Assembly: GCA_000004985.1 (NCBI GenBank) | Contig: GG738901.1 | Reading direction: 5' to 3' (one strand) | Length of the DNA stretch: 64,000 nucleotides | Source: Naegleria gruberi | Taxonomy: Eukaryota | In this document: piece by piece, positions 4,948 through 61,710 of the stretch | Position numbering within the stretch: the first letter of the stretch is position 1 | Layout: each line of letters starts with the position of its first letter | Translations under genes and position numbers: made by a program | The notes under the pieces: model-generated | Told to the model about the DNA's origin: nothing | Seen by the model: only the letters and a program-made list of their open reading frames with translations | The model's database searches: none

Positions 4948-5910
4948 ATGATCAATTTTGAATACAAACAAGAAGATGGATTTGCAGCAATTTCATTTGA
5001 GAATAATTTGAAATTGTTGTTGAAAGATCAAGCAATCACAAAACACATGTGCTTAACACGAAATGAATATTTTGAAAAAAAGAATATACAAAAGAAAGAA
5101 AATCAACCTTACTTTTCAAAAATATTTGGTGAATACCTTGCTAAATGCCCTGAAGATGCATTTCCATTTCTAGTTTTAGAATATTTTGATGATTTTGCTA
5201 AATTCAGAACAAAAACCAAGTCAACATGCGCCTCCTATTTCACAAGTTACAATTTTGATTCAGATTTCATGTCAAGTTTAAGCGCAATTCGTGTAAACGG
5301 TTTTTCATGGAGTAATGAAGGATTTTGGAAAATGACTGATTCAATTATTCAAGATTTTGAAAATCATGATGGTAAAATCATTACAGTGAAACATCCAACC
5401 ACAGGAGAAGATATTAAGCTATTCATTTGCTGTATGGGATTTTTATTAGATACACCTGAAAGATTGAAATGTTTAGCACTTATGAAAAATGAATGTTCCA
5501 GATGTTTAGATGCGTCAGACAACCTTGACAAAACACCAACAGATTTAATGGGTGCATCCGCGTTTAATCCAACATGTGTACACACATTTAAAAGGAGAGA
5601 ACATTCAGAAATGAAAGATATTGTTGAGAAATTATCAGAATTACCTAAAATTGCGGATTCTAAACAAAATAGAATTGCAAGGAAAGGTGTAAAAGAACAA
5701 ACTTGGGAAGAAGAGAGATTCAAAAGTAAGCAAATGTCAACAAACAAAAGAAAACAATTGATGAATCAATTAATTGTCAAAACATTCATCAAATCAAGAT
5801 TTGTTACTCAAATAATGATAGATCCGTATCGTAGATCTGTAGTTGATTTCTTTCATTTAGAAATTCAAGGATTATTTCGAAAACATCTCAAATTACTTGT
5901 ACAAGCATAG
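4948..5910 (+). CDS. transposase-like protein, N-terminal part (320 aa), truncated by the gap
   Basis: Track ORF. It is Cys-rich (FICCMGFLLDTPERLKCLALMKNECSRCLD) and ends directly at the N-run. Confidence 0.4.
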   Translation: MINFEYKQEDGFAAISFENNLKLLLKDQAITKHMCLTRNEYFEKKNIQKKENQPYFSKIFGEYLAKCPEDAFPFLVLEYFDDFAKFRTKTKSTCASYFTSYNFDSDFMSSLSAIRVNGFSWSNEGFWKMTDSIIQDFENHDGKIITVKHPTTGEDIKLFICCMGFLLDTPERLKCLALMKNECSRCLDASDNLDKTPTDLMGASAFNPTCVHTFKRREHSEMKDIVEKLSELPKIADSKQNRIARKGVKEQTWEEERFKSKQMSTNKRKQLMNQLIVKTFIKSRFVTQIMIDPYRRSVVDFFHLEIQGLFRKHLKLLVQA

Positions 5911-7109: not shown

Positions 7110-8717
7110 TTAATACTTATTCTTCTTAAAAGAGGATCTATCATCTTCATCTCTCTTTCTCTTTACAGTAGAAACGTCAGCACTTTCATCATACTTGTTT
7201 GAAGAATTCTTCACTTTACCACGATTATCCTTTGAACGATGAGTTTGTTCATTTTGCTTTTGACCCTTAGTGAAAGCAGAGGATGAACCAGTTGAATACT
7301 TTTCCAATTCACGTAAACGTTTTTCAACAGCTTCTCTAGAATCCAAACCAATGGTAGCTTGTTCCTTTTCACCCATAGCATCAACACGAGCAGAAATTGC
7401 ACATTTAGCAGCCAAAACTCTAGCAATCTTACCCTTGTATTTTGGTGGAGCTTGACCAATTAAAGAAGCATGATACAACAAACCATATTTTGGAGTATTG
7501 TGTCGTGATTTCAAAGCTCTAAAGAAAGCCTTTTCAGCACCCAAAATTTGAACAGTTGAAGCTGGATGTTTAGCCAAATTCATTAAACTACCAGCACGTG
7601 CCATTAAACGAGCACCAACTAATTCACCAGCCAAATGTGTCAAATTTGGAGCAATAGCTTGCATTCTATTCTTCAAATAATCAAACAATGCACCTCTATA
7701 TGTTGTAATACTTTCAACTTCTTCAGCCAATTTAGAAATATGAAGCATATCATCTTCAGAAATTTCAGTACCCATTGAAACAATAGCAGCTTCTCTAACT
7801 TCCTTAGCCAAATCTTCTGGTAAAACATCAGTTAATGGAGCCTTTTGAGCATTATTTCTATTTTGAAGACATAAAACTGTCTTAATATAAGCAGAATTGT
7901 CACGTAAAACCTTTGACAATTCTGGGAAATGCCAACCATACCATTCCTTAACTCTCATGACATAAATATTCAATTCCTTGTCAATATCATCTAAAAGTGA
8001 AATAGCTTGGACAATCATTGTATCAATCTTATCAGGTGAGAACTTTAATTTATAACGAGAAAGTGAGTGTGAAAGACCCAAAGACATGCTTTGTAAATCC
8101 TTTTCAGTGGTAACATCTCCTAATAATTGTGTCAAATTGTTACGAATACCTCTCATCAATGCAACTACAGAGTCATCACAGACACATTGAATACCAAGTT
8201 TACTCTTAATGGCTGCTCCAAGGTTTTTATCACAAACAGCCAATTTACTTTCCTTATCAGCCAATTGCTTTTTCAAGAACTTTTTCAACTTTTTATCCAA
8301 CTTGGATTCAACAATAGCAGTAGCAGCTACGAGAGCTTCATTGGTATCTTTAAAGTTTTCAAAAGACTTGAGTTTAATACTATTTTAATTCCAACAAGTA
8401 AAGAAATGGTATTTGCGCAAAATGATGAGTATTTTGTTAGGAGAGGAGTATATAATAGTAAAGTAGAGAGGTTGGTGTACAATTGTTATAGTTGTAGTAG
8501 TAATAATATGGAGAGAGTAATATGTATTGTTGTTCATCATCATCATCATGGTCATCATAGAAAATTAGGCTTTGAAAGTTTATAAAGAGACTTACTTCTT
8601 GCTGAGTTTAGAAGAGTTGGCAAACATTTCATCAACAGACTTGACGTCAGTGATTTTACCTTCATCCAAAACATTAAACAAAGCATAACCTGCTGCTGTT
8701 TCAAAGAGAACAAACAT
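7110..8717 (-). CDS. nop58: box C/D snoRNP protein Nop58 (2 exons: about 8596-8717 and 7110-8379)
   Basis: Exon 1 reads MFVLFETAAGYALFNVLDEGKITDVKSVDEMFANSSKLSK(N), followed by a GTAAGT donor. A 216-nt intron precedes the AATAG acceptor. Exon 2 reads IKLKSFENFKDTNEALVAATAIVESKLDKKLKKFLKK... and is collinear with human NOP58 (KYKGKIARVLAAK vs KHKGKISRMLAAK, with a KKD-like basic tail). Confidence 0.9.
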
Positions 8718-50835: not shown

Positions 50836-52407
50836 TTAGTTGTCCAACAAGTAATAACTACTGCTAGATGAATTGGATGTTTCATGTTCATGACTATTTG
50901 TGGTTACTGATAGCTCCTGTTTAATTTCTTCAATTTTCCCATTAGCATCATTGGTTTGCTTTTTGAAAATCTTAAAGTCCTCATAATCAAAATCAAATAT
51001 TACAATCCTACAAAAAAGAATGCAATAAAGAACATCTGTTAATATTTGAGTGTATGCTAGGAATACTCTGTCATTAACCAGCTTTGCAAATACTCCATTC
51101 AGATCAATAAAAGAAATTACCAATACGAAAAGTATGGAAAAGTTAGAGAGCTTGATAAACGGAACAGTATTCGAAACAATGTCAGACAGCTTTTTCAATA
51201 CAGAATTCACTCTACGTGAAGTAATAATAAACATGGATAGGCATAATACCTCACTCAACCACGAAATCGCAACATAGGTATAGAGAAAATATTGATCTCC
51301 AATTAATAATGGAATGGCAACTGTCACAAAGCATACGAACAAGACAGCAATGAAGAATAAAATCACAGCAATGATATATACCTTCTTAATGGAATAGTTG
51401 TTTGGCTTCCCCTGTTGATTCTGATTAATCAGAGTGGCCATTCCATACCATCTCATTACAATTGGGAATAATGAATAAAACTGCATCAATTGTGCCATCA
51501 TGAGAAACGTAGTCGCTACTGCAAAACTAGGTGTGAAATAAAGGGAATAATTGACAATGTAACATAGGGAAGAGAAAGTTAGAGCAAGTGAGGGAATTAG
51601 TCTAAGGATTGTGAATCCTGGTACCTTTTTGAAATAATTGACTGATTTTGGGATGAGTAGCAAAGAGATTGTCACAATGAATAACAGAGAAAAAACAATC
51701 AGGCCTCCAAAATCCAATGACTCTTTAAGAATATTCTCCCATCCATGTTTTACACATTCAAATTCAAAACGATTATGTTTCTCGCAATAGCAAACTATTG
51801 CATAACTGTCCATTAATGGACCAACTACAAGAGGAATTCCTATATTTACCGTTCCACAATATCTAATATCATTTGGAATGGATTCAATAATGTCCACAAT
51901 CCTAGTTCGAGAATCTATTAGTTTCGTATTGTTACAAGAATGTCCAAGACGAAGTTGATGATACTTTTCAAATCCATTCGCATTTCTACAATATTGACAA
52001 TAATTAATCCAATCATATATCGAGGTCTTGTTATCCCAAACTCCAGACCCCGAATCAATACATAAATCCGAACAATTAAAATTCATTTCATTTTCTAATA
52101 TCTTATTAGAAGCACATAAATTCCTCGAGCTATCATATCTTAACTCATTGATTTGAAAGGTGTCTCCTACTGTCAAGTGTGAATAATATTTTGCACCTTG
52201 TGGGACTGTAATTGATTCGCATGCAATAGGAGAGGGTATTCGAATAGGTTTGTAGATATTAAAATGTGTTGATTTTAGTTGAGAAATAAATTGTGTTTGG
52301 GTACAGTTTTTCCACTTTCCAATATTATTAACAACTTGTTGTGTTGTGGGAGTACAAAACCAAAGAAGAACCAAGAGGTAAACAATCCTCCTGACTAGTG
52401 GTGACAT
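50836..52407 (-). CDS. 7TM receptor-like membrane protein with a signal peptide and a roughly 230-aa Cys-rich ectodomain (GPR107/108 lung-7TM-receptor-like architecture)
   Basis: MSPLVRRIVYLLVLLWFCTP is a signal peptide. There are more than 12 Cys in the ectodomain. Seven hydrophobic helices are spread over the C-terminal 300 aa. Confidence 0.5.
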   Translation of the reverse strand: MSPLVRRIVYLLVLLWFCTPTTQQVVNNIGKWKNCTQTQFISQLKSTHFNIYKPIRIPSPIACESITVPQGAKYYSHLTVGDTFQINELRYDSSRNLCASNKILENEMNFNCSDLCIDSGSGVWDNKTSIYDWINYCQYCRNANGFEKYHQLRLGHSCNNTKLIDSRTRIVDIIESIPNDIRYCGTVNIGIPLVVGPLMDSYAIVCYCEKHNRFEFECVKHGWENILKESLDFGGLIVFSLLFIVTISLLLIPKSVNYFKKVPGFTILRLIPSLALTFSSLCYIVNYSLYFTPSFAVATTFLMMAQLMQFYSLFPIVMRWYGMATLINQNQQGKPNNYSIKKVYIIAVILFFIAVLFVCFVTVAIPLLIGDQYFLYTYVAISWLSEVLCLSMFIITSRRVNSVLKKLSDIVSNTVPFIKLSNFSILFVLVISFIDLNGVFAKLVNDRVFLAYTQILTDVLYCILFCRIVIFDFDYEDFKIFKKQTNDANGKIEEIKQELSVTTNSHEHETSNSSSSSYYLLDN

Positions 52408-53193
52408 TTTTTAGATAATGGTCAACTGGAATGTGTTAATTACAAAGTTTGTGATATGGAATGTTTAATCCAAACGCGAACCTCTACAGATAGTTGACAA
52501 TCCCAAACCAAAATATCACAATTTTTTACCTTCCGTTCCTGGTCATCACATTCCCATCTCGTTAATTTAATCACAACAAAACGACATGCATGCAAATAAG
52601 CAACGTATTACTTCCATTTCTGAATTAAATCTATTCCTTGATTGTAATAAGAGGAAGATTAAATTTCCTTCGAGGAAGGTGTCAACGAGCATTAAATTTC
52701 ATCATAAATTTCATTACAGCATTAGCGACACATTATCTTGATTATTAAAGCCTTGCTCATCATCTACTTTTCAATCAAACAACATTAGCCCAAAACCCAT
52801 CACGAATATTTTTTTCAAATTTTAAAAAAAAACAACGAATTGACCGCCAATTTGTAAACAACCGTAGATTTGAAAATTTTAGGTCATTTGCCGGCAATTA
52901 CAACATTATCATCATCATCTTTATTTTGTCGTTATAATATACACTCAATAAGAGAGAATAGAGTAGTTGAGAGCTGTGGAGGAAACTTTTTTTTGGAAAA
53001 TTCTTCGCTTTATACAACCACAGAAGAAACTTTGAACAAAATTTCATCACGTGTTATTGCCATCATCATCATCATTATTTGCTGAGAGTACTTTCGTATT
53101 AATTAATAGTAGATTTATTGAAGTTCTCTCTCTATTCGAAATATCATTAGAATTTGATATTGTATTATAAAAAAAAATCATCAACATATTAGA

Positions 53194-54411
53194 ATGGCAT
53201 GCTTTGGAAAGAAGGAATCTTCTTCATCGTCATCGAAAAAGTCGTCCCATGTCGTAAAGACACCACCAAAGAAAATATTATTGTTGGGAGCTGGTGATTC
53301 AGGAAAAAGTAAGTTTTCTATTATTCGAAAGCGTTGTTTACCAATCCACATATTATCATTTATCGGATGAACAACATAGGTACTATTTTCAAACAATTGC
53401 AAAGAATTTATAATAATGGTTTTCCTGAGGAAGAAAGAATTCTAAAGAAGAATATTATTTATGAAAATGTGTTGCGTAACATGATGAGTTTAATTAAAGC
53501 AACGCATACCTTTCAAATACCTATTCAAAATGAAGATAATAGAGAAAGGTAAGTTTTAATGGTGTGGACCCAATTTTAATATTATTCGAATAGAGCTCTT
53601 AAAATTGACCAACTTTCATCAAAGGTTTTATTGTCTATTGAACGAGTTTGGAGTTCGGAACTAGGTCAAGAAATAAAAGCTCTGTGGGAAGATCCAGGAG
53701 TGCAAGAAACATTCAAGAAGAAGAGTTCATTCCAAATTGAAGATTCTGCCCAGTACTATTTCGATAACTTAGATAGAATTTGCCAAAATGATTATATACC
53801 GACCGAAGAGGATATTGTCAGAGCTAGAATGAAAACAACGGGCTTAATTGAACAAAAATTCCATTCCCATGAGACAGATTTTGTAATGATTGATGTGGGT
53901 GGTCAAAGAAACGGTATGTTTTTCAAATCAGTATATTCTAAAATTCCCTATTATTAATTCAGAGAGAAAGAAGTGGATTCACCATTTTGAAGGTGTGGAC
54001 GTTGTTTTATTTGTGACAAGTATGAGTGAATTTGATCAAAAATGTTACGAAGACGATCAAACTAACAGAATGAAGGAGTCTTTACAATTATTTGAGGATC
54101 ATATCAATTCTAGATGGTTTACTGGAGCTCAAGTTTACTTGCTCTTCAACAAGTATGATTTATTTGAACAAAAAATTAATACCGGTGTCAAACTTTCTGA
54201 CACATTTGAAACTTATTCAGGCGAAAAGGATGTTACTCTTGCCAGAAACTTTATCATTAATATGTTTACATCAAAAGATATTAACTCTAAATTAGTGAAT
54301 GTGAGCTGTGTTACAGCTCTTGATATTACAGAGCTCGGAAAACAAATCGATTCGATAGTGAAATCCATCATTACTAGATGCAATCCACAAATGTCACAAT
54401 CACTAAACTAA
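53194..54411 (+). CDS. heterotrimeric G-protein alpha subunit. Four exons, approximately 53194-53308, 53380-53548, 53594-53913 and 53963-54411
   Basis: The product begins MACFGKK..KILLLGAGDSGKS and continues |TIFKQLQ... and ...[33 protein letters not shown]... through LFNKYDLFEQK, all G-alpha hallmarks. The introns are GTAAGT/GTATGT..AG of about 71, 45 and 49 nt, with phases consistent with the track frames. The Gly2 and Cys3 N-terminus fits myristoyl/palmitoyl modification. Confidence 0.9.
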
Positions 54412-54430: not shown

Positions 54431-57400
54431 TTATAATATCAAAGTTTCACTAGTTGCCCCAACACTCAAAGTACTGATTGACGCAACATGGACAGTTTCA
54501 CTGTCTTCCTGTTGAGGTATCAAATTATCCTTGCTTTCCATTTTGTCTTCCGTATTACTATCATTTTCACTAGGGTTTTTCTCAGTGAAATCTGCTGTTT
54601 CATTGACACCCTCTTGAACTTCTGAGGTAAGAATTTCATTCTCTGCAGTCTTTTCAATTGAGATTTCTTGTGTTGGGAAATTGGAAGCATTGTCCTCTGG
54701 TGTAGTTTCTTGATCTTGGGGAGCTGATTGGTCCACATCGGAAACAATTGCTTCCACTTCTCCAATCGTAATAGGAATATCCTCTACTTTAACTTGATCA
54801 TTTTCCTCCTTTTCATTGTTGGTGTCTTCTATTTTAGTAGATACTTCATTCTCTTGTAGATTTTCAATTTTTTCAATTGGAGAGGCTATGTCTGAAACTT
54901 CGTTTGGAGCTTCTGGGTTAATAACTTCCTGAGATAATGTGTTTTCAATTGAATCCATTTCTGCTGGTAAAGTCTCTGGTATTGTTTCACTGACTTCTTG
55001 ATGTTGAGTAACAATTACTGGATCTGATTTCATTTCTTCAACATCACTAAATGTTAGTTGGCTAACATCTTCCACCAGAGTGACCTTCTCTTCAATTTCT
55101 TCGCTTTTATCTTCAGTCGAATTTAATATCGTTGGAGATTCTAAAATATTAGATTTGTTATCATTTGAGGAGTCTTGTTCTGTTGGACCCTGGGTAATGG
55201 TTTCATTCTCAGTCTTCTCTGGAGCAGTGAAATCTGAAGCAACTTTAACATTTCTCAAACCGCTTCCTTTCTTTAAACTAGCTCTAGCCTTTAATAGTGG
55301 ACTAAGGCTATTCTCTTCATCCAAATCCGAATAACTTTTAGATCTGATTGAGAGTTGTCTCTTCTTGAGGAAATCAACACTTTTAGTTGAAATTGGAGGT
55401 GTGGATGGTGTGGTAGGGGTGGAAGGTGTTGAGGGACTGCTTAGTGGACTAGATGGGCTGCTTGGACTCGATGGAGAACTGAGTATTTTGCTCTCTGACT
55501 GAATTCTCTTCAAGGTCAATGTACGCTTGAGAGCTTGTTGATTTTTACGTTCTTCCTTATCAAGATCATCTTTTGCCTTCTTGAAATGGTTAATGAAATC
55601 CTTTACAATAATTAAAAGAGGATCTCCAGGTAAAGACAGTGCCTCATCTTCTGTAGGATTAAAGTGGAAAAAGTCGCATGCCATCTTGTAGCTATTGTTC
55701 AACTTTTCAAAAAGAGATTCTACTTGTGAGACAGATTCGTTACATTTTGATAGGAAACTACTAAAGTTTGCCTCAATCTTGTGATTCTTCTCCTTTTTCT
55801 TGATGGTATCAATGTCTGGTTTCTTTGATTGAAATAATTCTCTTACATCTTGAATTTCTTTCAAATCTTGTTGAATAATATCCAATTTTATATTGAATAT
55901 GTCTGAACTACAAACTCCATAAGATTCAAGTTCAACTTCAAAATTAAATAATTCACTCTTTTCATTCTTTAAGGTTTCTGCTAAAAAATGAACCAGGGTT
56001 GTTTTAGGATTAATACTTGACTTGGTATCGCTCAACTTGGGTAAAATGTTCAAGTGGAAACCCTGAGCTTCTTCCAGTTGTGCTTTACCTCTGTTCATAT
56101 AATTACCTACTTTCAGCAACATGTGCAAAAGTTTTACGAATGACTTTGAATTCTGCAAATTATCTACAGTGTTCAATTTTGCAGTAATGGTGTCACTAAT
56201 TCTTGTTGTGTCAAATGTTTTCATGTGTTGCATGAGTTGAAGTCTAGTTGGTAGTATTGAAATTTCAGCCAATTTCCATGTCCACAATAAAGAAGGTCTT
56301 AGATTGTCAAAATACTTCTCCACAACCTCTTTCTTCTTTACAATTTCCTCAGTAGCTGGAACAAATTGAGAAAGTCCCTTAATTTGATCAATCGTCAAAG
56401 ATTCAACATTCATAGTATTGATTGCATCCAACAATGTTTTCAACTCGCAATATTTAAAAAGACCATTCACCAAAATTTCTAAATTTCTTGCCAATGATGA
56501 ATCAATAATGGTGTTCAACTCATCATCAATGGCTTTCTTTGGATTTTTAACTTTGGTTGAAGGAGAAGAAGTCTTTTTTGCAGAAAACAAATTGTCCAAT
56601 TTTTCAAAGATGGCTTTTTGTTCTTCATCCATTTCTTCGTCCTCATCTTCCAAAACCCAAACTGATTTAACCTTGTCTTTAGTATTTCTAATTGGTTTCC
56701 AGTGGATGTTCTTGGTCTTGGAGACCTCTTTTTTGACTTTTGGTTTCAAGAACCCTCCTGGTGGAGGTGGAACACCAGGTGGTGGAGGAATTCCACCCAT
56801 CATTGGAGGTGGTGGAATGCCAAATGGTGGAGGTGGAATAGTTACCTCAACAGGAGGTGGAGGCAATGTTATGAGAATAGACTTGGGATCTATAATTTCG
56901 AATGGATATTTGGGCAGAGCATCTAAATAGTAAATGTCACCATCAAAGTAAAATTCAGGTCTAGTCTTGTTTGAGAAGAGATTCAAAATCACTTTGAGGT
57001 AGTCTGGTTCTTCTTTTTGGAGTGGATTTTCAACCAGAGTCAATGCCTCCAAATTATCGAAGTAGGTCAAGGGATAAATCTGATTCCACTCTAGAATGTT
57101 ATTTCCGTGAAGATAGACCTGCTTCAACTTATCCTTATCACATGCCTGTAGGAGACCTATTACATTTTCCAAGTAATTGTTAGAAACATCCGCTATTTCC
57201 AAGTTAGGTAATTTAACAACTGAAAAATAATCTAAATTTTCCAGTAAATTAAAGCTTAGATCCAATACTGTAAGATTTACGGTACATATTGAATTATTCT
57301 TTGAGAATTTGATGTTAGAGATTGAATTGTGTTGCAGACAAAGATCAGCCAAGTTTGGTACATTCACACCAGGTAGCAATATTTTGTCAACGTTTGTTTT

Positions 57401-58240
57401 GGTCAACTTGAAATTCTTTAAATTCTTCCATTCCCTATTTTCCTTAAATATGGAATTGTTAATCTCTGCAATTTCGCAATTTTCTATAGACAAGCCCTCT
57501 GTGTGTTCCAGAATTGATTTTCCGAAGCAATCATCATTCTCCATTTTCGAAATTAATTGTGGGCAATCAATGAATATTAACTTATTAGTTTGTGAGTTGA
57601 CAATTTTATCGAACGAGTCAACAATTACATTCCTGTAGAAGGTAATTTGTTTGAGCTCATTAGAGTTTAAAATTGATCCCAAATTAAAAGTACAAGTTGT
57701 AGATTTTCCAGTTATTCTAATCTCTTTCAAGTAGTGGAAATAACTCAAATCTAATGTAATCTTCTCGCTTTCAGTTAAATGTTCAAATCTCCTCACTTTT
57801 TTGTAAAATATTTCAATACTCGAAACTATAGTTTTAAACTTGTTCATTATTATCTCCAAGTCATTATTCGTCACTTGGATTGTATCATAGCTATTTACAA
57901 TATTATCTATAATCCACTTTAAAATTTTGTTCTGATTGGCCTCCCTTTTTTGGGTTACCTCGAAATCTGCCAATTTTTCATTTAACTTTTCCAAATGGTA
58001 TGTTGATAGTGAAACAATCGTTCCATTATCATATAACTCTTGTTCGCTATTCGCCTGTTGAAGGTAGAGTGCCAGTAATTTAATGACTTTATCAGAGGCA
58101 TGACAATGTTTTCTATTCGCAGATGTATTCATCACAGTTGTTGTTGTGATGAAGGAATTCATTGTTGACTCGGATGATAAATCATCAATATTGGCCCTAG
58201 AAGTGACACTCTTCCTTATAATTGCATCATTTATGTTCAT
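54431..58240 (-). CDS. formin with N-terminal leucine-rich repeats, then FH1 (poly-Pro), FH2, and an acidic S/T/P-rich C-terminal tail; 1269 aa
   Basis: The LRRs read ..LDLSFNLLENLDYFSVVKLPNLEIADVSNNYLENV... FH1 reads PPPPVEVTIPPPPFGIPPPPMMGGIPPPPGVPPPPGG. The FH2 core reads ..LLHMLLKVGNYMNRGKAQLEEAQGFHLNILPKLSDTKSS..TLVHFL.. The tail has SSPSSP/STP repeats. Confidence 0.8.
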   Translation of the reverse strand: MNINDAIIRKSVTSRANIDDLSSESTMNSFITTTTVMNTSANRKHCHASDKVIKLLALYLQQANSEQELYDNGTIVSLSTYHLEKLNEKLADFEVTQKREANQNKILKWIIDNIVNSYDTIQVTNNDLEIIMNKFKTIVSSIEIFYKKVRRFEHLTESEKITLDLSYFHYLKEIRITGKSTTCTFNLGSILNSNELKQITFYRNVIVDSFDKIVNSQTNKLIFIDCPQLISKMENDDCFGKSILEHTEGLSIENCEIAEINNSIFKENREWKNLKNFKLTKTNVDKILLPGVNVPNLADLCLQHNSISNIKFSKNNSICTVNLTVLDLSFNLLENLDYFSVVKLPNLEIADVSNNYLENVIGLLQACDKDKLKQVYLHGNNILEWNQIYPLTYFDNLEALTLVENPLQKEEPDYLKVILNLFSNKTRPEFYFDGDIYYLDALPKYPFEIIDPKSILITLPPPPVEVTIPPPPFGIPPPPMMGGIPPPPGVPPPPGGFLKPKVKKEVSKTKNIHWKPIRNTKDKVKSVWVLEDEDEEMDEEQKAIFEKLDNLFSAKKTSSPSTKVKNPKKAIDDELNTIIDSSLARNLEILVNGLFKYCELKTLLDAINTMNVESLTIDQIKGLSQFVPATEEIVKKKEVVEKYFDNLRPSLLWTWKLAEISILPTRLQLMQHMKTFDTTRISDTITAKLNTVDNLQNSKSFVKLLHMLLKVGNYMNRGKAQLEEAQGFHLNILPKLSDTKSSINPKTTLVHFLAETLKNEKSELFNFEVELESYGVCSSDIFNIKLDIIQQDLKEIQDVRELFQSKKPDIDTIKKKEKNHKIEANFSSFLSKCNESVSQVESLFEKLNNSYKMACDFFHFNPTEDEALSLPGDPLLIIVKDFINHFKKAKDDLDKEERKNQQALKRTLTLKRIQSESKILSSPSSPSSPSSPLSSPSTPSTPTTPSTPPISTKSVDFLKKRQLSIRSKSYSDLDEENSLSPLLKARASLKKGSGLRNVKVASDFTAPEKTENETITQGPTEQDSSNDNKSNILESPTILNSTEDKSEEIEEKVTLVEDVSQLTFSDVEEMKSDPVIVTQHQEVSETIPETLPAEMDSIENTLSQEVINPEAPNEVSDIASPIEKIENLQENEVSTKIEDTNNEKEENDQVKVEDIPITIGEVEAIVSDVDQSAPQDQETTPEDNASNFPTQEISIEKTAENEILTSEVQEGVNETADFTEKNPSENDSNTEDKMESKDNLIPQQEDSETVHVASISTLSVGATSETLIL

Positions 58241-58791: not shown

Positions 58792-60367
58792 AATGTTTGG
58801 GAGAATCAATGAGCAAGGCTCTAATACAAGTGGATTCACCTTTTTATCAAATACTTCACAACCAACAACTACTCAACCATTTAGCTTCGGTTTTGCAGAT
58901 TCTGATGATGGGGACGAGTCACCACTATCAGCCACTACAGAAATAGACTTTGCAAGTAAGTAATAGTTTCACAATCCGCAAGCTCAACAACAGCACAATT
59001 GAGCATTAGATCAGTTAGCATCAAGTTATTCCAATGAAGCAACCAATGGAGCATCTAGTCAAACTGGTACTACTTCTGGTGGATTCAACTTTGGATTCAC
59101 TCCATCACAACCAGCAACCACTACTCAAACTGGATTCAATTTTGGAACAACTGCAGAAACATCCAATTCTACACAATCTTCACTTGTTGGCAATTCAACA
59201 ACTCAATCTCAAACAAGTAATTTCAGTTTTGGAGCAAAAACACAACCACCATCACAACTAGCCATTACTTCTACTGGATTTGCCTTTGGTACTACTCAAT
59301 CAAAACAAAGTGGATTAACCCCTTTTAGTACAGCAAATACTGAGCCAACAGTTCGTTTCTCTTTTGGACCCACCAATCTTTATGGCTTTATAACCATTCC
59401 AAAATATGGTGGTTATCAAAGTAATGATTTCCATGATTTAAATATTGAAATTTATGATGAAAATGGACTTTTTACTACAATCAAGACTCATAGAATCAAA
59501 GTTGGACTAAATGATGGATTATTATCTCAATTGGTAAGGGCTTGTACCAAGAAAAATGACATGTTTACCTTAGAATTAGCAACATCTTTCATTCCAGAAA
59601 CAAAGTTTGGAAGAATCAAAGCCATTGCTTTACAACATGCTATCAGTTCCTATATTGAATCATCCAAGGTAAAGGCAGAAGATATTTTCCAAGTTATGCT
59701 TGTTATGGATTACTTTGGCATTCCAACATTCCAACCCTTAGTCTCTCACCTTGAGTCAACCTTTAAAGATTCTGAATTCTGTGCTCGTGCTTATCTCGGA
59801 AGTTTCAACAATTTCTTTTCGACCTATTCGCTCCCTCAATCTTCTTCCTTCTTTTCCTTATTTAGAACTGCATTCAACATTTTAGTAAATGGAAAGGAGC
59901 TCGAAAATCGAACAGCTATCAAAGAATTGAACAGACAATTATTTGAAACTCAACTCAAAAAGTCGGTCACTGCAACAGAGTTACCACATATTTTGAGTGC
60001 TATTGAAGTTTGGATTTTACATAACTTTTCTTCGTTGAATGAGACACTGTCCTATCAAATTTGCAGTGTACTGGACAATCTCCAAATCAATCAAATCCAA
60101 ACCATTGTAATGATGATTCAGTTACTAACTTGTAATTCTCCACAATTTTATTTTATTAACTCAATTAGTCCAGAATGGAAATTGAAACTCATTAACAAGT
60201 ATGCTAGTTGCCAGCCAGTCCAACCACAAACTCAATCAACTCCAATACAACCACAACCACAACCACAACCACCAACTCAACAAACTCCACCAGTACAACC
60301 TCCGAAGCAAAATTTCAACCCTCCTCCACAACAATACATTCTACAAACCCCTGGCAAGGGATTTTAA
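58792..60367 (+). CDS. FG-repeat nucleoporin-like protein, 2 exons (about 58792-58957 and about 59012-60367)
   Basis: Exon 1 reads MFGRINEQGSNTSGFTFLSNTSQ..FSFGFADSDDGDE.. and ends at a GTAAGT donor. Exon 2 carries GFNFGFT, FNFGT, FSFGA, FAFGT and FSFGP repeats. A roughly 280-aa alpha-helical domain and a PQ-rich tail follow. Confidence 0.45.
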
Positions 60368-60417: not shown

Positions 60418-61710
60418 CTAGAGTTTTGATTTTCTATTTACGAATGCCTTGGCTCCCTTAACTGTTTCAATATTAAGAGCAGTAAGACCAAGCTCATATT
60501 CTCTTTGAAGCTTTTCCTTCATCGATTTTCCGCTATAAGCTGCTTCAAGGGCTGAAGTTTTATCATTTCTCATACAAAGTTGTGGGAATACACATAATTG
60601 GTTAGCCAACTTCACAGCACAATCCAATACATTTTCATCCTTAGAAATTATTCTATTGATAAGGCCAATTTTATGTGCTTCCTTTCCATCAATTTCTCTT
60701 CCTGTCAAAATCAAGTCCATAGCTCTGCTCAATCCAATTAAAGTTGGTAAACGAATTGAACCTCCATCAATTAATGGAACACCATAACGTCTACAATTGA
60801 CACCAAATATCGAATTGGTCTTACAAACTCGTAAATCACACCAACAAGCAAGTTCCAAACCACCTGCAACACAGTAACCTCCTCCAATGGCAGCAATAAC
60901 TGGCTTGGATAAGCTCATTCTAGTTGGGCCCAGAGGTCCTTTTGCTGTTTTAGTTACTGGCTCAACTTGATTCAAATTTCCTTCCGAAACAGCTTTAAGA
61001 TCTGCCCCTACACAAAAATCAGTCTCGGAACCATATAATATAGCAACACGTGCATTTACATCCTTTTCAAAATCAAAGAATGCTTGATAAAGTTCATCTG
61101 CTGTTCTTCTATCAATTGCATTCTTCACCTCTGGGCGTTGAATTTTAATAATTTGAATTGTTCTATCAGATAAAAACGACACTGAAATATTCTTATAATT
61201 ATTCTTCGGAGCAAGTGGATGTTGTTTATAAATACTTCCACTATTATGATATTTAGTATGATGGTGAGAAGTGAAAATATCTTCCGATGCTAAAAGGCTT
61301 TCATCTTGCATTGATGTTTTCATCTTGAAAATTGATGGTGTTGTTGAAGATGAATTATTTCTTCTTGTTGTTGTAGAATTTGCTGCAGCTGATGAAGATG
61401 AAGAAGATCCATTGCTGCTACACTCATTCACCGATACTAATAACATTGTTTCATCTTGTTGTTCTCCGAGTTTTTGTGGGAGAAACGAGAGACGCATTTT
61501 TTTTTCTTTTCTTTTTGACTTCCTATTTAGGACCTTGGGTAGATGGATTTGGAAAAATATTAAGGGAAGAAAAAGTTGAGAGAATTGAGGATTGTGGAAT
61601 GAGTGGATGGAAGTAGATGTGGTGAGGAAGATGTGGTGAAGAGAGGATTGTGAATGGTTCAGTAATTGATGAGATTTCCAAGCAATTTGGTCAATTAGAT
61701 TTTTTTTCAA
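60418..61710 (-). CDS. enoyl-CoA hydratase/isomerase (crotonase) family protein; probable start MRLSFLPQK at about 61497 (mitochondrial presequence-like)
   Basis: ..AILYGSETDFCVGADLKA.. and ..VIAAIGGGYCVAGGLELACWCDLRV..GVPLIDGGSIRLPTLIG are crotonase-fold oxyanion-hole motifs. The upstream part of the track ORF is probably untranslated leader. Confidence 0.75.
   Translation of the reverse strand: MKKNLIDQIAWKSHQLLNHSQSSLHHIFLTTSTSIHSFHNPQFSQLFLPLIFFQIHLPKVLNRKSKRKEKKMRLSFLPQKLGEQQDETMLLVSVNECSSNGSSSSSSAAANSTTTRRNNSSSTTPSIFKMKTSMQDESLLASEDIFTSHHHTKYHNSGSIYKQHPLAPKNNYKNISVSFLSDRTIQIIKIQRPEVKNAIDRRTADELYQAFFDFEKDVNARVAILYGSETDFCVGADLKAVSEGNLNQVEPVTKTAKGPLGPTRMSLSKPVIAAIGGGYCVAGGLELACWCDLRVCKTNSIFGVNCRRYGVPLIDGGSIRLPTLIGLSRAMDLILTGREIDGKEAHKIGLINRIISKDENVLDCAVKLANQLCVFPQLCMRNDKTSALEAAYSGKSMKEKLQREYELGLTALNIETVKGAKAFVNRKSKL

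Follow-up and report, generated by a model that had tools for sequence, protein, structure and literature searches.

The reverse strand of a 64,000-nucleotide stretch of Naegleria gruberi DNA (contig GG738901.1; hereafter the window) carries a gene for a formin, the LRR-formin, in which a predicted leucine-rich-repeat (LRR) solenoid of the SDS22 type occupies the place of the usual GBD/FH3 region. From N- to C-terminus, the architecture comprises a helical region, an SDS22-like solenoid of ~10–11 repeats with its cap, FH1, FH2, basic/Ser motifs, and a lineage-specific acidic tail. No fewer than four lineages of the Naegleria clade have kept this architecture. Unbranched actin filaments are built mainly by formins, and almost all that is understood of formin activation comes from the Rho-GBD/DID-DAD mechanism in opisthokonts and amoebozoans. 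Naegleria, whose lineage is more than one billion years removed from animals, crawls and phagocytoses in an actin-dependent manner, and one member of the genus, N. fowleri, is a lethal pathogen. A conserved formin in which an LRR solenoid stands in for the Rho module lets alternative ways of controlling formins be studied as a natural experiment; the practical impact stays modest as long as neither a ligand nor a phenotype is known.

Gene layout and formin core

The complete coding sequence (54431..58240, minus strand, as are all features below) encodes 1269 aa plus stop in a single exon. It is one uninterrupted reading frame in the ORF list, has an in-frame TGA immediately before the ATG, and is collinear with the N. 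lovaniensis gene product. The sequence-only reading of this DNA had advised looking for an upstream exon: tblastn with the ortholog leaders found no conserved one. The GC content of the window is ~33%. The protein begins with a non-conserved leader (aa 1–49; 58094..58240) whose composition is S/T/N-rich and whose only counterparts in the alignment are the orthologs' leaders, which are longer and of low complexity.

The FH1 region (aa 460–494; 56759..56863) lies immediately N-terminal to FH2 and contains five PPPP runs. Every ortholog retains these proline tracks, which are presumed, from their sequence, to be profilin-actin binding sites. The FH2 domain (aa 502–887; 55580..56737) is complete: Pfam FH2 (PF02181) matches it over profile positions 4–372 of 372 at E=1.9e-51, scoring 175.8 bits against a cut-off of 34.8. 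The FH1 and FH2 assignments of the earlier reading are upheld. By alignment, I589 corresponds to mDia1 I845 (the isoleucine of NLSIFL) and K740 to mDia1 K994 (the lysine of DTKS), which we take to be the actin-binding knob isoleucine and post lysine of formins. Both residues are unchanged across four orthologs, and so are the lasso tryptophans W514 and W528. FH2 thereby retains the residues on which dimerisation (lasso Trp) and actin binding (knob Ile, post Lys) depend, and the sequence identifies the encoded protein as a bona fide formin of a Naegleria-type heterolobosean. The dictyostelid or amoebozoan lineage implied by the earlier reading has to be given up, as the collinear orthologs are those of N. 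lovaniensis and N. fowleri.

Downstream of FH2, ortholog alignment delimits a conserved segment (aa 888–985; 55286..55579) in which two basic/Ser motifs, KRTLTLKRIQSESK and KKRQLSIRSKSYSDL, flank an S/P-rich linker. The motifs are conserved among orthologs as RRxSVxxRVQS and RRKxSLKSKSFSDL, and the surrounding linkers diverge; there is no MDxLL motif in this segment, which holds basic/Ser motifs only. The remainder of the protein is an acidic, S/T/E-rich tail (aa 986–1269 plus stop; 54431..55285) that is specific to the window species in a comparison with three orthologs, whose proteins end ~20–65 aa past the SKSFS motif. Over aa 901–1269 the composition is S 15%, E 14%, T 10%, and P 7%, with 20% acidic versus 8% basic residues; the tail has no Pfam match and no tandem repeats of note. 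The long acidic S/T/P tail described earlier is thus present over this range, but it is not conserved in the orthologs.

The LRR module and its conservation

Residues ~160–440 are predicted to form an SDS22-like capped LRR solenoid, with a signal far beyond chance. This identification rests on sequence and profile searches of the PDB, on the Pfam scores of the orthologs, and on an AF2 model searched with Foldseek. A motif scan locates six canonical LxxLxLxxNxL repeats starting at aa 274, 297, 323, 347, 372, and 397 (aa 274–421), with a repeat length of ~22–25 residues; together with an SDS22/U2A'-type C-terminal cap (ENPL...Y...FYFDG), they make up aa 274–440 (56921..57421), and the cap aligns with the SDS22 and CFAP410 caps at the sequence level. 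Upstream of the canonical repeats, the repeat alignment recovers degenerate ones from ~aa 160. Residues 141–273 (57422..57820) are accordingly assigned as degenerate LRR-like beta/alpha repeats that probably continue the solenoid N-terminally, an assignment based on the AF2 model, the repeat alignment, and PDB LRR matches, some of which reach back to profile position ~198.

Searched with phmmer, the PDB returned LRR proteins only (CFAP410-NTD at 1.6e-6, decorin, dynein LC1, and U2A'), the first of these being structure 8AXJ, identified as CFAP410-NTD via PMC11865075. A four-ortholog profile matched SDS22/PPP1R7 at 4e-16 and also TLR3, LGR4, nischarin, and TBCE. The AF2 model of aa 130–450, built from a three-sequence alignment, has moderate confidence (pLDDT 71) and a strand-turn-helix periodicity of ~23–25 residues; the strands within aa 141–273 are regularly spaced (pLDDT ~75–86). 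Foldseek with this model against the PDB gave SDS22 as the best match (9.5e-6), and every other match at E<=0.001 was an LRR protein, at low TM-scores of 0.3–0.4. An earlier AF2 run on aa 50–454 with two sequences reached a pLDDT of 46.6 and was left out of the fold search.

In Pfam, the LRRs of the window protein itself score 16–19 bits against gathering cut-offs of 27–30, so that domain annotation, which the sequence-only reading had proposed as a check, establishes FH2 clearly and leaves the window's own LRR below threshold; the LRR_4/LRR_8 cut-offs are passed by the N. lovaniensis, metagenome, and one N. fowleri ortholog. Earlier domain surveys missed the LRR-formin because LRR scores fall under curated thresholds in some species. 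We found no description of the architecture in the searchable literature: the survey of Grunt et al. 2008 (PMC2386819) reports 15 N. gruberi formins with no LRR among the formin-associated domains, and Naegleria lies outside the coverage of Pruyne 2017.

The N-terminal portion is not LRR throughout. Of the ~450 aa described earlier as preceding FH1 and containing LRRs, only aa ~160–440 are LRR-like; aa 50–140 (57821..58093) form a region that is conserved among orthologs and predicted to be helical, at low confidence, in the pLDDT 46.6 run. It has no Pfam match, and none of the 60 listed PDB profile matches reaches it.

Collinear orthologs with 43–47% identity are found in N. lovaniensis, N. 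fowleri, and one metagenome contig, and all of them have the LRR-FH1-FH2 layout; the N. lovaniensis protein XP_044545994 is 45% identical and collinear over aa 50–919. Identity is 36–49% in the N-terminal segments versus 48–53% in FH2, with 36–41% over aa 50–160 among three aligned orthologs. These sequence comparisons indicate that conservation of the N-terminal module comes close to that of FH2, with comparable constraint on both. Invariant positions make up 11/30 on the exposed concave face of the six canonical LRRs versus 15/88 at other non-core positions, small counts from four sequences of which two are closely related.

Among 1.84 billion representative proteins searched, the N-terminal module is matched over its full length by the ortholog group alone, and FH2 occurs in none of the other 149 top-listed LRR matches (0/149). 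The LRR-module profile matched none of 224 other formins, Naegleria paralogs included, and scanning metagenome contigs with the N-terminal profile yielded no relatives. The gene is also linked to a convergent G-alpha neighbour, the two lying tail-to-tail with their stop codons only ~19 nt apart, and this neighbour is the same in the orthologs wherever flanking DNA is readable; the conserved pairing might reflect coupled regulation.

Competing readings and proposed control

The chance is vanishingly small that the architecture is an artefact in which the LRR and FH1-FH2 parts, being two adjacent genes or exons of different genes, are joined by read-through. Logan contig L001 speaks for it at face value, as the region is called there as three separate genes, with one TGA and two frameshifts. 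The N. fowleri reference protein, which falls into the same 90% cluster, is intact and shows none of these breaks; they are for that reason read as assembly errors, and L001 as a pseudogenised ortholog was rejected on the same protein. No stop intervenes between LRR and FH1 in the window, in metagenome contig L002, or in the reference proteins of N. lovaniensis and N. fowleri, and only ~20 aa lie between the LRR cap and FH1. The uninterrupted frame in the window, L002, and the reference proteins effectively refutes a two-gene artefact. A separate upstream LRR gene fails because LRR and FH2 share one ORF here and in the orthologs, and the single gene assumed at the outset is borne out in the window, in the annotated proteins of both species, and in the metagenome contig. 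We give hardly any credence, either, to the N-terminus being a highly diverged GBD/FH3 armadillo domain with leucine-rich stretches. The predicted helicity of aa 50–140 would suit it, but Pfam Drf_GBD, Drf_FH3, FH3_FHOD, and Drf_DAD give no match in the window protein even at E<=1, whereas a comparable scan finds Drf_GBD in the Naegleria paralog P0101 at 4.4e-14. Drf_GBD, Drf_FH3, and Drf_DAD are likewise not found in the orthologs at the thresholds used, and when the N-terminal profile was compared by hhalign with an alignment of GBD/FH3 from 15 formins, the probability was 0.09%. The 60 listed PDB profile matches and the Foldseek matches at E<=0.001 are all LRR and none armadillo, and the periodicity of the model is that of strand-turn-helix repeats. 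Taken together, these searches effectively refute an armadillo identity for aa 160–440 and sustain the earlier proposal of an LRR in place of GBD/FH3. PTEN_C2, found in paralogs P0262 and P0263, has no Pfam match in the window protein. By these criteria of sequence the LRR-formin has neither GBD/DID nor a recognisable DAD, and a missing DAD is not proof against autoinhibition.

We consider it probable, from the sequence and the model, that the protein is a functional actin nucleator or elongator that is targeted or regulated through the LRR surface and not through Rho-GBD/DID-DAD. An FH2 dimer would nucleate actin filaments and ride their barbed ends, supplied by FH1 with profilin-actin, while the concave face of the LRR would serve as a docking surface for other proteins. 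Docking at this surface would set where or when the formin acts, in place of Rho-GTP binding to GBD and of DID-DAD autoinhibition. That the LRR may replace Rho-dependent autoinhibition by a different input, as suggested at the outset, can be reasonably inferred. By analogy with other intracellular LRRs, candidate ligands include a small GTPase, PP1, and a cytoskeletal or ciliary partner.

Two more specific roles for the LRR have to be weighed against this general one. It is possible, though unlikely, that the solenoid is an intramolecular autoinhibitory clamp on the protein's own RRKxSLKSKSFSDL motif or on FH2, a DID-DAD analogue that would be released by phosphorylation of the motif or by a competing ligand. 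Both basic/Ser motifs C-terminal to FH2 are kept in all four orthologs despite the diverged linkers, occupy the DAD position, and resemble basophilic-kinase sites, and the concave face of the LRR is relatively conserved; on the other hand, an amphipathic MDxLL-type DAD core is missing along with any Drf_DAD match, and the motifs could equally be phospho-regulatory or basic patches that bind membrane or actin. A still smaller likelihood attaches to the analogy-based idea that the LRR targets the formin to the flagellar/basal-body apparatus of the Naegleria amoeba-to-flagellate switch, or acts as an SDS22-like PP1 dock. The closest solved relatives are SDS22/PPP1R7 and ciliary LRRs (CFAP410-NTD, dynein light chain 1, LRRC51, LRRC23, and radial-spoke and central-apparatus proteins), and six N. 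gruberi formins, counted as a group and not for this gene specifically, are expressed equally or preferentially in flagellates (PMC7594500). The likeness is nevertheless to the generic SDS22-like LRR class (~15–17% identity by Foldseek), with no specific ortholog. The boldest proposal is put forward with considerable doubt: in it, the LRR-formin is an invention of the Naegleria lineage in which an SDS22-like LRR became a new, Rho-independent control of a formin, either by clamping the conserved C-terminal basic/phospho motif or by receiving a non-Rho signal, for example from PP1, from a GTPase of the Ras/Rab type, or from a partner in the flagellar apparatus.

Comparison with known systems

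The combination of an intracellular LRR and an actin-regulating module in one polypeptide is shared with Flightless-I, an actin regulator that carries LRR and gelsolin domains and co-operates with diaphanous-related formins (PMC2871490, PMC7509490). However, Flightless-I has gelsolin repeats and not FH2, and it acts on formins in trans; the homology shown is that of generic LRRs.

The solenoid itself is closest to the SDS22/PPP1R7 class (SDS22, U2A', dynein LC1, CFAP410-NTD, nischarin, and TBCE), with which it shares the ~22–25-residue LxxLxLxxNxL repeats and the ENP..Y.. cap. In contrast to this class, the first four or five repeats of the LRR-formin are degenerate, and identity by Foldseek is ~15–17%. 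The fusion to FH1-FH2 is found only in the LRR-formin and in none of the named SDS22-class proteins.

Within Naegleria, the FH2 domains closest after the orthologs, at ~29–31% identity, are those of the PTEN-C2-FH2 formins (N. gruberi P0263 and N. lovaniensis P0262) and of the FH2-only P0260 and P0261. The N-termini of the other Naegleria formins hold PTEN-C2, GBD/FH3 (P0101), or nothing recognisable, and none of them matches the LRR-module profile. Beyond the genus, FH2 is best matched by metazoan Diaphanous proteins, at 24–30% identity. With the diaphanous-related formins (mDia1, DAAM, FMNL, and those of the Dictyostelium ForA-J type), the LRR-formin shares the polyproline FH1, a complete FH2, the knob isoleucine, the post lysine, and the lasso tryptophans. 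Unlike them, it is without GBD, DID/FH3, the dimerisation/coiled-coil region, and DAD, and has an LRR solenoid ~20 aa upstream of FH1.

Coding frame, FH1-FH2 core and C-terminal tail

The LRR-formin is encoded by a single open reading frame of 1269 residues on the minus strand (54431-58240), with an in-frame TGA directly 5' of its ATG. Pfam places a complete FH2 domain at residues 502-887 (E=1.9e-51; profile positions 4-372 of 372), preceded by a typical FH1 with five PPPP runs (residues 460-494), whose proline tracks are conserved in the orthologs. The lasso tryptophans, knob isoleucine and post lysine of FH2 are needed for dimerization and actin assembly. The window protein retains the lasso tryptophans W514 and W528, and its I589 and K740 align to the knob I845 and post K994 of mDia1, respectively; each of these residues is invariant in four orthologs. 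The C-terminal 369 residues are enriched in Ser, Glu, Thr and Pro, and acidic residues (20%) outnumber basic ones (8%). The FH1, FH2 and acidic S/T/P tail that a sequence-only reading had ascribed to this formin are all present where it had placed them.

Two basic, serine-containing motifs after FH2, RRxSVxxRVQS and RRKxSLKSKSFSDL, are conserved in the orthologs; they could serve in regulation by phosphorylation or be bound intramolecularly by the LRR. The acidic tail (residues 986-1269) has no counterpart in the orthologs and is a lineage-specific extension, probably disordered. It is most likely translated, since the frame stays open for ~285 codons in 33%-GC DNA.

Identity of the N-terminal region

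Pfam LRR families score just 16-19 bits in the window protein against cut-offs of 27-30, which, taken alone, is weak evidence for LRRs. Despite these sub-cut-off scores, four lines of evidence identify the N-terminus as LRR. A phmmer search of residues 1-470 against all PDB sequences returned LRR proteins exclusively, including the T. brucei CFAP410-NTD (8AXJ; PMC11865075) at 1.6e-6, decorin, dynein light chain 1, U2A' and TBCE, with matches confined to residues ~200-431 and mostly 270-425. A profile built from four orthologs matched SDS22/PPP1R7 in the PDB at 4e-16, the alignment extending across the C-terminal cap ('ENP..k...Y'), as well as TLR3, LGR4, nischarin, TBCE and dynein LC1. The orthologs themselves exceed Pfam gathering scores in N. 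lovaniensis (LRR_8 30.4, LRR_4 27.9), N. fowleri CAG4715348 (LRR_4 35.2) and a metagenome contig (LRR_4 45.7). An AlphaFold2 model of residues 130-450, computed from a three-sequence alignment (mean pLDDT 71, pTM 0.60), displays short strands at regular spacing from about residue 141 to 432; its first Foldseek matches in the PDB are SDS22 structures (E about 1e-5, with low TM-scores of 0.3-0.4), and every match with E<=0.001 is to an LRR protein.

The sequence holds six canonical LxxLxLxxNxL repeats, which begin at residues 274, 297, 323, 347, 372 and 397. The cap follows them, and four or five degenerate repeats precede them. Residues 50-140 are conserved and predicted to be helical, and no match to them was found among the listed PDB matches of the four-ortholog profile. 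The proposed N-terminal LRR was thus correct in kind but too generous in extent.

Two other readings of this region were weighed. The N-terminus could be a diverged GBD/FH3, the regulatory region of Diaphanous-related formins; Drf_GBD, Drf_FH3, FH3_FHOD and Drf_DAD are absent from the window protein at E<=1 and from Pfam scans of the orthologs, and the canonical Naegleria formin P0101 yields Drf_GBD at 4.4e-14. Aligned by hhalign to 15 GBD/FH3 regions, the four-ortholog N-terminal profile gave a probability of 0.09%. This reading was rejected on the Pfam and hhalign results, which bear out the proposal that LRRs stand in place of GBD/FH3. Alternatively, the LRR part could be a separate gene; this was rejected because LRR, FH1 and FH2 lie in one stop-free frame in the window and in the metagenome contig, and the proteins annotated in N. 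lovaniensis and N. fowleri likewise carry them together. The gap between the LRR cap and the first proline track is just ~20 residues. A suggested check for an upstream exon, by tblastn with ortholog leader sequences, found none; LRR and FH2 belong to one gene.

Orthologs, distribution and genomic neighborhood

The best homolog, N. lovaniensis XP_044545994 (C9374_007880), aligns collinearly over residues 50-919 at 45% identity; orthologs were also identified in N. fowleri (FDP41_011101 / CAG4715348) and on the ENA metagenome contig k141_1717444, where the protein has 1071 residues. These orthologs identify a Naegleria-type heterolobosean gene, and the dictyostelid or amoebozoan lineage previously considered was not borne out. 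Pairwise identities among three aligned orthologs are 36-41% in the helical region (residues 50-160), 41-47% in the degenerate LRR-like repeats (161-272), 43-49% in the canonical LRRs and cap (273-440) and 48-53% in FH2 (502-887), indicating that the N-terminal module and the catalytic domain are similarly constrained. The N-terminal profile was searched exhaustively with HMMER against 1.84 billion representative proteins, giving 1057 matches in total; among those listed, only the metagenome ortholog matched the whole module (1.2e-91). The other 149 listed are generic LRR matches at profile positions ~180-420, none with an FH2. A further 224 formins were retrieved, among them the PTEN-type, GBD/FH3-type and FH2-only paralogs from Naegleria, and none matches the module.

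The survey of Grunt et al. (2008) covered about 300 FH2 proteins, 15 from N. gruberi, and associated formins with PTEN, PH, C2, PDZ, RhoGAP, ANK, ARM, TPR, WW and other domains, LRR not among them; for Heterolobosea, the survey gives GBD/FH3 and signal/TM combinations alone (PMC2386819). Velle and Fritz-Laylin (2020) reported 14 N. gruberi formins, with LRR unmentioned (PMC7594500). We found no account of an LRR-FH2 architecture in the full-text literature searched, and it appears undiscussed. Domain surveys could miss it because Pfam LRR scores fall short of the threshold for both the window species and one N. fowleri model. The sequence family is not new, since the N. lovaniensis and N. fowleri proteins are already public as 'FH2 domain-containing protein', the former with automatic LRR matches.

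A multi-exon G-alpha gene (53100-54411, plus strand; start MACFGKK..KILLLGAGDSGKS; Pfam G-alpha 2.2e-34 and 2.7e-43 on two exons) converges on the formin, whose stop codon (54431-54433, minus strand) lies just 19 nt from its own, so that the 3' UTRs must overlap. The tail-to-tail pair recurs on the N. fowleri-like Logan contig L001 (SRR29240419) and the metagenome contig, with a gap of ~17-18 nt. Within the G-alpha switch region, a putative ~50-nt intron (53916-53965, plus strand) separates DVGGQR from SERKKWIHHFE; the two called pieces of G-alpha on both contigs suggest that it is conserved. On L001, an in-frame TGA at a conserved Cys codon (5523-5525) and two frameshifts (~5990 and ~7600-7680) split the formin into three called genes. 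A pseudogene was rejected because the N. fowleri reference protein is intact, which attributes these lesions to assembly or read errors.

Divergent from the formin, a gene at 58800-60367 (plus strand) carries FG repeats (GFNFG, FSFG, GFAFG, SFGP), after which come a folded region and a C-terminus rich in P and Q, without a Pfam match; it looks like an FG-nucleoporin. Near 58950 the reading frame changes, or an intron intervenes, at least once. An enoyl-CoA hydratase/isomerase gene (60418-61710, minus strand; ECH_1 3.6e-44) has a long low-complexity N-terminal extension in its mechanical ORF; on L001, too, an ECH gene is found beyond G-alpha, indicating wider but rearranged microsynteny. A 523-residue ORF (50836-52407, minus strand) combines a signal-like N-terminus, as predicted, with a Cys-rich region and several hydrophobic segments; it matches no Pfam family, and the protein collection contains no exact record of it.

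Possible control and relation to known LRR proteins

The N-terminal domain of the LRR-formin, putatively regulatory, is non-canonical and restricted to its lineage. We infer that the protein is active as a dimer, nucleating actin and elongating filaments processively with a supply of profilin-actin. With neither GBD/DID nor DAD present, it is unlikely to be controlled by Rho-GTP relieving DID-DAD autoinhibition, and the LRR would be the obvious candidate for an input that regulates or targets it. Among exposed sites on the concave face of the canonical LRRs, 11 of 30 are invariant, versus 15 of 88 other non-core sites, a small sample that is only suggestive of such a role. If the LRR were to impose a new mode of formin control, the finding would become weightier. 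The structural class nearest to this LRR comprises SDS22, CFAP410, dynein LC1 and LRRC23/51, a likeness that invites the hypotheses of PP1 docking or a link to the flagellar apparatus.
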